From Minisyncoccota bacterium (GTDB lineage: Bacteria; Patescibacteriota; Minisyncoccia; Phycocordibacterales; UBA5272), in assembly GCA_035905815.1 (NCBI GenBank), contig JAMIGE010000033.1, positions 1-49,598 on the forward strand: a stretch of 49,598 nt of DNA, in the 5' to 3' direction. The notes under the pieces are model-generated. The model saw only the letters and a program-made list of their open reading frames with translations. It was not told where the DNA came from and did no database searches. The translations under genes were made by a program, and so were the position numbers. Of the stretch, positions 12,687 to 14,213 are shown one piece after another (position 1 is the first letter of the stretch; every line of letters starts with the position of its first letter).

Positions 12687-14213
<1,527 letters not shown>

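Follow-up and report, generated by a model that had tools for sequence, protein, structure and literature searches.

Bacteria whose 16S rRNA lacks the CCUCC core of the anti-Shine-Dalgarno (anti-SD) sequence have been catalogued in several surveys. Lim et al. (2012; PMC3457768) listed 15 organisms without CCUCC. The list of Amin et al. (2018; PMC6107228) comprises 128 organisms, in none of which a variant Shine-Dalgarno (SD) sequence matched the variant anti-SD. A further survey places CPR (candidate phyla radiation) bacteria among the 'SD-scarce organisms lacking CCUCC', namely Wolfebacteria with the tail GATTAATTAAATATT, Campbellbacteria with GAATATTTCAAAATG, Peribacteria with GAACACTTCCTTA, and SR1 (Estrada, 2024; PMC10783764). 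Azambacteria are also present in its supplementary table of CCUCC-lacking tails, which draws on Amin et al. (2018). The tail is read in ribosome maturation as well. The Era GTPase binds nucleotides 1530-1539 (GAUCACCUCC) during 30S maturation, and in Flavobacterium 16S processing suffers when the anti-SD is ablated (Naeem et al., 2026; PMC13000453). Paceibacteria are reported to be mostly without era in a survey that covered 30,000 genomes (PMC12641178).

The locus described here is a 16S rRNA gene (rrs) within a window of 49.6 kb, by which the whole stretch of DNA analysed is meant. Its 3′ tail is altered at the anti-SD position. The gene, the distribution of its tail, the sequences upstream of start codons and the region behind the tail are treated in turn.

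The 16S rRNA gene and its 3′ tail

The rrs gene occupies positions 12687..14213 of the + strand. It is a full-length member of the RF00177 family, matching model positions 1-1533 without truncation at 1340.4 bits, far above the gathering score of 50 (Infernal). The covariance model (CM) alignment places a 69-nt insertion in the helix 6 region (12760..12828, +), where the model has 14 nt. Such insertions are typical of CPR rRNA genes. A sigma-70-type promoter, TTGACT-17 nt-TATAAT (12531..12559, +), agrees with the consensus at 11 of 12 positions and precedes the 16S 5′ end by about 120 nt. The leader strand 12630..12689 pairs with the trailer strand 14341..14400 (both +). This duplex has a dG of -43.2 kcal/mol, compared with -24.5 ± 3.4 for shuffled trailers, and contains a perfect run of 22 bp; we take it to be the usual RNase III-type processing stem. 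A 3′ spacer of about 128 nt separates it from the modelled 16S 3′ end. A GC hairpin resembling a terminator, with a T-rich run behind it, is located 3′ of the trailer (14431..14444, +). The consensus promoter, the processing stem and the terminator-like hairpin all speak for a functional gene.

The gene stands alone. Within the 49.6 kb of the window there is neither a 23S nor a 5S rRNA gene nor a spacer tRNA; the rRNA genes are thus unlinked. A second rrs copy is likewise absent from the window. Genes around rrs include murB, valS, dnaK/grpE, fmt, elp3, murA, rsmI, htpX and uvrC.

Helix 45 with its GGAA tetraloop (CACGGCUAGC-GGAA-GCUGGUCGUG; 14177..14200, +) is intact, as had been proposed from the sequence alone. 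It reads CACGGCTAGC-GGAA-GCTGGTCGTG and forms ten pairs, two of them G-U, all standard and free of non-canonical flags in the CM alignment. The following tail, GAUUAAUUCCAAA (14201..14213, +), replaces GAUCACCUCCUUA in a gap-free CM alignment. At the 3′ end of the RF00177 alignment, positions 14200-14213 (GGAUUAAUUCCAAA) fall column for column on GGAUCACCUCCUUu. The corresponding window letters, GGATTAATTCCAAA, are gapless against ugGAUcACCUCCUUu with the top posterior probability at each column, and a separate 3′-end scan aligned the last 14 nt of the 16S rRNA to GGAUcACCUCCUUu. The anti-SD core is AUUCC in place of CCUCC. In E. coli numbering, the substitutions are C1533U, C1535A and C1536U, and also U1540A and U1541A. 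The sequence-only reading had listed the three replaced C positions correctly, while the two U positions were missing from its account. It had named a covariance-model alignment as a check; the model fixes the 3′ end at 14213 and places no CCUCC-containing tail there. The same reading had claimed that CACCTCC is absent from the next 340 nt. This was borne out across 14200-14600, in which neither CACCTCC nor the shorter words CCTCC and CTCC occur. Because the spacer of about 128 nt is also devoid of CCUCC, the rRNA offers no canonical anti-SD regardless of where its mature 3′ end falls.

Distribution of the tail among relatives

A first scan covered one genome per GTDB species, with the helix-45 anchor plus GGATYAWYTCC as query, and matched at least 119 genomes. 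At least 63 species genomes (63 of the 119 matches listed) carry exactly GGATTAATTCC behind a helix 45 identical to that of the window. This comparison with related genomes had also been suggested beforehand, and the identical tail in so many of them, behind the same helix 45, shows that it is no product of chance or sequencing error. Among the matches listed, genomes with the same tail are named Kaiserbacteria, Nomurabacteria, Paceibacteria/Paceibacterota, Minisyncoccia and Parcubacteria. Minisyncoccus, a cultured relative, shares the tail; the same-tail locus L042 carries GGATTAATTCCAATTGGAC. At least 16 further genomes among the matches listed, including Wolfebacteria and Lloydbacteria, end in GGATCAATTCC. 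Two complete-chromosome contigs are among the matches, CP060229.1 with the same tail and CP174360.1 with GGATCAATTCC. The closest 16S sequences among the matches listed belong to three MAGs (L040, L113 and L048) at 89-91% identity; most Paceibacteria 16S sequences among them are about 80% identical to that of the window. The query fixed most tail positions, and the first scan is therefore unable to measure tail conservation.

A second, unbiased scan of metagenome contigs was anchored on the helix-45 sequence only and yielded 120 16S ends. CCUCC is missing at the anti-SD position in 119 of them, and the remaining end has GATCACCTCC there. CCTCC occurs somewhere within the next 40 nt in three of the 120. 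The tail variants comprise GAAUAAUUCA (17 ends), GAUUAAUUCC (13), GAUUAAUUCA (12), GAAUAUUUCA (10), GAGUAAUUCA (10) and many singletons. This variety behind one anchor rules out the tail as a single invariant selected sequence. The window tail is one common variant in a clade where loss of the anti-SD is essentially universal. For Parcubacteria/Paceibacteria, the data suggest a near-universal rather than a sporadic loss.

These distributions bear on a trivial explanation, in which the tail stems from a mistake in assembly or sequencing, or from an rrs copy decaying into a pseudogene, while another rrs copy with CCUCC does the work. Such an artefact would suit a single window of 49.6 kb in view and an rrs gene unlinked from the 23S gene. 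Yet the gene gives a full-length, high-scoring CM match with intact helices, and it has its own consensus promoter, a processing stem with a 22-bp core and a terminator. The tail recurs in at least 63 independent species genomes, complete-chromosome contigs (CP060229.1) included, and 119 of the 120 metagenomic relatives are likewise without CCUCC. CPR genomes generally have one rRNA copy, which also counts against a second, canonical gene. An artefact is hardly credible.

The exact tail GAUUAAUUCC was not found in the accessible supplements of the anti-SD-loss surveys. As literal text, the tail sequence gave only unrelated matches in the open-access literature.

Shine-Dalgarno pairing upstream of start codons

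Gene calls, for the window as well as for the fetched loci, followed a crude longest-ORF rule and comprised non-overlapping ORFs of at least 100 aa. Pairing of the native tail with positions -20..-2 equals that of permuted tails, with z = -0.37 for 44 window genes and z = +0.23 for 290 genes of same-tail genomes. Relative to windows shifted 30 nt upstream, no excess of native-tail pairing was found at -20..-2. The canonical tail likewise shows no excess there over permuted tails or shifted windows (z about 0). SD-like words, defined as GGAG, AGGA and GAGG at -16..-5, are not enriched in same-tail genomes (10% vs 8.6% in the control) or in the independent metagenome set (9% vs 8.7%), nor in near relatives (2 of 37). 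Complementarity to the tail is thus low throughout, with a marginal excess of SD-like words in the window alone, where eight of 44 genes have one (18% vs 8% in the control, p = 0.024). SD motifs are absent upstream of the window's housekeeping genes murB, valS, fmt, htpX, elp3, murA and rsmI. The lack of SD motifs before housekeeping genes had been part of the sequence-only reading, and holds for these seven. Its broader proposal of SD-independent initiation is supported by an upstream pairing at control level and by SD words unenriched in the clade.

An altered tail might instead have a partner of its own. mRNAs would then carry a new upstream motif, e.g. GGAAUUAAUC, that is complementary to it, as in a co-evolved orthogonal SD:anti-SD pair. 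One gene, starting at 7559, does have GAATTAAT at -12..-5, with a dG of -7.1 to the native tail. Against this single case stand the native-tail duplex energies, which are no stronger than in the permuted-tail and shifted-window controls of window and clade and thereby argue against a co-evolved SD. GGAA and AATTAA have no positional peak upstream of starts, and frequent tail-complementary motifs, which mark class iii of Estrada (2024), are not present. The absence of a matching variant SD in the 128 organisms of Amin et al. (2018; PMC6107228) points in the same direction. A co-evolved pair is very improbable. Initiation without SD pairing is the preferred reading for most genes of the window.

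Promoter boxes at leaderless spacing

The positive signal in place of the SD is, to judge by motifs, a -10 promoter box at leaderless spacing. A -10-like box was defined by at least five of six matches to TATAAT, with A2 and T6 required and the last base 6-12 nt before the start codon. Such a box precedes 16 of 44 window genes (36%), compared with 6% upstream of internal ATGs (p = 2.5e-9) and 9% in a control shifted 30 nt upstream. The nearest relatives have it at 13 of 37 starts (35% vs 6.7%, p = 4.4e-7), same-tail genomes at 77 of 290 (27% vs 3.2%, p = 1e-46) and the metagenome set at 59 of 233 (25% vs 3.4%, p = 9e-34). The box end has its modal position at -7, so that a standard transcription start falls on the first base of the ATG. 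A TGn extension is present in seven of the 16 window boxes.

In a promoter scan, full -35/-10 pairs end 7-9 nt before murB (15691), htpX (40305) and the starts at 10036, 36836 and 38734. Upstream of murB, TTTATA-17-(TG)TATAAT ends at 15684 and the ATG follows at 15691, a box end of -7 (15656..15693, +). For htpX, a perfect TTGACA-16-TATAAT ends at 40296 and the ATG lies at 40305, a box end of -9 (40269..40307, +). ATGACT-16-(TG)TATAAT ends at 36829 before the ATG at 36836, again at -7 (36802..36838, +). The methionyl-tRNA formyltransferase gene fmt (29119..30087, - strand; TIGR00460, E = 9e-57) has a TG-TACAAT box ending at -7. The presence of fmt indicates that initiation still uses fMet-tRNA. 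Of the 47 ORFs, 38 begin with ATG. For about half of the starts, no signal was identified (17 'other' and four coupled, of 47 ORFs).

A -10 element at a fixed short distance from starts is the motif by which leaderless genes are classed. From this spacing, in AT-rich DNA with 26% GC upstream of starts, we infer the computational signature of leaderless mRNAs. No report of a leaderless architecture in Patescibacteria was found in the open-access literature.

A promoter-like pair, TTCAAA-16-TG-TATAAT (5746-5783), ends 10 nt before tRNA-Ile (5783). Such motifs therefore behave as real promoters at short range. The tRNA transcript seems to have hardly any 5′ leader, a parallel to the leaderless arrangement of the protein genes.

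Genes with AGGAG motifs

Pure SD-independence leaves one group of genes unexplained. AGGAG or AGGA occurs at SD spacing, -14..-9, in ten of 47 window ORFs, those starting at 1812, 9107, 14552 (-), 19753, 24347 (-), 25326 (-), 28502, 36449, 41476 and 47748. A leaderless-type box is absent from all ten. Their products are accessory or hypothetical, i.e. a beta-lactamase-like protein, a fatty-acid desaturase, a lipoprotein-like protein with a visible signal-peptide-like N-terminus, and seven proteins without a family match. At least three of the genes lie behind high-scoring promoters with leaders of 25-50 nt (15569-15541 on the - strand, 26207-26180 on the - strand, and 41416-41443). The last belongs to a hypothetical protein of 126 aa (41416..41478, +), whose perfect promoter is followed by AGGAG at 41462-41466 and ATG at 41476.

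These genes could be served by a reduced but functional SD. The retained UUCC (U1536-U1537-C1538-C1539) would then act as a minimal anti-SD for GGAG, with one G-U pair, or GGAA in a leadered minority, most other genes being leaderless. GGAG indeed pairs with U1536-C1539 in the canonical register, though weakly (dG about -3.8). The matches to GGAG/AGGA cluster at -14..-9 with none at -30..-15, each of the three high-scoring promoters with such leaders is followed by AGGA(G), and the SD-word excess of the window is consistent with a residual function. That excess has no counterpart in near relatives, same-tail genomes or the metagenome set. The AAGGAG duplex has -3.6 kcal/mol with the native tail compared with -7.2 with the canonical tail, so the consensus AAAGGAG fits the lost tail better than the existing one. 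The accessory or hypothetical nature of the genes, among them the beta-lactamase-like and desaturase genes, allows the motifs to be relics of horizontal acquisition. A reduced SD is a serious possibility for this minority, albeit one we rate well below even. The motifs may be relics in acquired genes, or UUCC may be a minimal anti-SD for a few leadered mRNAs.

A possible hairpin between tail and trailer

Conservation among relatives continues past the modelled 16S end for 5-6 nt and then stops. The last conserved block is GGA (14216..14218, +), which is complementary to U14208-C14210 and would form the 3′ arm of a small hairpin, UCC-AAAUU-GGA; similarity to relatives ends directly after it. 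Of the UUCC-type tails among the matches listed, 82 of 84 have GGA in the next 12 nt, and AA(A)TTGGA lies past the modelled end in 62 of 64 same-tail loci. Covariation between the two arms was assessed in 140 distinct 3′ ends (loci L002-L240) by a re-pairing permutation with 2000 trials and no phylogeny control. In 71 of the 140 ends, the 4-mer at 1536-1539 has its exact complement 3-8 nt downstream, compared with 24.5 ± 3.9 (maximum 37) in re-paired sets. The tail 4-mer UUCA has the exact partner UGAA in 33 of 47 ends, UUCC has GGAA in 15 of 37, CUCC has GGAG in 14 of 22 and UUUU has AAAA in five of six. GUCA with UGAC and UUCU with AGAA are represented by one end each, both with the exact partner. 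UUUC/GAAA is a further covarying pair. In the window itself, the tail-trailer stem has only 3 bp, and the MFE fold favours another 3-bp stem.

Verrucomicrobia, Bacteroidota and other CPR groups represented in the sample have the same arrangement behind their CUCC-type tails. It therefore looks like a general precursor feature rather than an invention of Paceibacteria. The covariation suggests a conserved precursor-rRNA hairpin that is independent of SD function, and we present it as a lead rather than a finding.

The mature 3′ end might lie farther downstream than the model places it, with the tail closed into a terminal hairpin with the conserved AAUUGGA instead of being single-stranded. The extension of conservation by 5-6 nt and its abrupt stop would agree with such an end, as would the covariation of the tail with a downstream partner. 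But canonical-type tails (CUCC...GGAG) in the same data set are arranged likewise, the stem of the window has just 3 bp and a different stem is preferred on folding. In well-studied bacteria, the mature 16S rRNA ends before the trailer partner. With the partner beyond the mature end there, and canonical tails built alike, the evidence points to a precursor structure. We consider a displaced 3′ end unlikely.

A precursor hairpin could have a wider meaning. The anti-SD nucleotides (1536-1539) might serve an additional, more ancient function that persists after SD pairing has been lost. As the 5′ arm of the trailer hairpin they could determine 16S 3′-end maturation, and in an Era-poor lineage the structure might persist as a mature terminal hairpin. 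Together with the leaderless promoters, this would amount to class-wide leaderless initiation. The combined proposal is speculative and, as a whole, rather doubtful. If it were true, Paceibacteria would be a whole bacterial class that initiates leaderlessly, like many archaea.

Stop codons and individual ORFs

Stop codons of the window ORFs are TAA (26-28), TAG (18) and TGA (one among 45-47 ORFs, in the tandem TGATGA, e.g. 47742-47747). Near relatives also rarely use TGA, with about four of 40 stops. UGA recoding (code 25 or 4; Gracilibacteria/SR1) was considered and rejected, since TGATGA is a true stop and ORFs re-called with a sense TGA gain nothing but antisense or junk extensions, with no credible gene lengthened. 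TGA is simply rare, and recoding is unlikely.

The uvrC ORF, in the region 45449-47402, encodes 437 aa. Family models of 574-698 positions matched it mainly over the first 240 or so. About 640 nt without a + strand ORF of at least 60 aa follow, with two short ORFs on the minus strand. The gene may be truncated or decaying. For the DEAD-box helicase ORF (30864-32162), the family-model match begins at residue 89-104. Translation may in fact begin farther downstream; alternatively, the protein may carry an N-terminal extension specific to its lineage.

Proposed initiation mechanism

The window derives from an ultra-small bacterium of the Patescibacteria (CPR), of the Parcubacteria/Paceibacteria type. 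As the overall explanation, we favour an intact rrs gene with the lineage-typical tail GAUUAAUUCC, no choice of start codons by SD pairing, leaderless starts and drift of the tail, and hold this to be likely. Ribosomes of the lineage would select start codons without SD:anti-SD pairing. For most genes that open an operon, transcription probably begins at a sigma-70-type promoter, in many cases one with an extended -10 element. Transcription would start on the AUG or within a few nucleotides of it, yielding leaderless mRNA. As the motif spacing suggests, the ribosome with fMet-tRNA would bind the 5′-terminal AUG directly. Operon-internal genes are tightly packed, in a very A/U-rich and weakly structured context that may suit re-initiation or coupling.

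With SD pairing unused, nothing would keep the tail from drifting, and relatives do differ in it. Published work has Era, the reader of GAUCACCUCC, missing from most Paceibacteria, so that a second constraint would fall away. Loss of SD usage and loss of Era together would leave the tail without either of its known sequence-specific readers. One constraint seems to be left, the pairing of the tail with the covarying stretch 3-8 nt downstream in the precursor.

The data suggest that loss of the anti-SD is accompanied by promoters placed for leaderless transcription and, going by the literature, by loss of Era. A coherent picture of a simplified initiation system would result. Where AGGAGG ribosome-binding sites are taken for granted, gene finders will mis-call the genes of this very large and mostly uncultured group, and expression designs will mis-drive them.

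Comparison with known systems

Actinobacteria and Deinococcus-Thermus are rich in leaderless genes (Zheng et al., 2011; PMC3160421; GeneMarkS-2 class, PMC6028130). The likeness lies in a TANNNT box ending near -7, a preference for ATG and the absence of an SD at such starts. These bacteria keep CCUCC and use the SD for leadered genes, whereas the anti-SD is gone here and leaderless transcription is deduced from motifs.

Bacteroidia have SD-blind ribosomes (Jha et al., 2021; PMC7797042; Naeem et al., 2026; PMC13000453). They share the genome-wide lack of SD usage and the A/U-rich starts. In contrast to the window, they mostly keep CCUCC, which is sequestered by bS21, bS18 and bS6 and serves rpsU autoregulation and rRNA maturation. 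Because CCUCC itself is lost from the window tail, this sequestration mechanism is inapplicable as described.

The insect endosymbionts Carsonella, Hodgkinia and Nasuia have lost both CCUCC and SD motifs in reduced genomes (PMC7782861; PMC10783764). Their loss is a recent, lineage-specific decay with extreme drift, whereas the present case concerns a large, old, free-standing bacterial class in which the covariation of tail and trailer persists.

The closest counterpart is the anti-SD-less class of Amin et al. (2018) and Estrada (2024), defined by a tail without CCUCC after helix 45, a variant common to relatives and no tail-complementary motif. On each testable point, the rrs tail of the window agrees with the SD-scarce, CCUCC-lacking class. 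Its tail GAUUAAUUCCAAA, gap-free on GAUCACCUCCUUu, contains no CCUCC behind helix 45. At least 63 genomes carry the same variant, and upstream regions show no preference for pairing with it. The trait is typical of the lineage and the phenomenon has been catalogued, so a specialist should not be surprised. CCUCC loss in CPR being already on record, the gain is one of scope and mechanism, not of discovery. The surveys contain a handful of CPR genomes, whereas 119 of 120 ends behind this helix 45 are affected here, and the loss is tied to a positive promoter signal of the leaderless type. The additions are modest, comprising the near-universal loss behind helix 45, a leaderless-promoter signal replicated across the genome sets and the covariation of the tail with its trailer.
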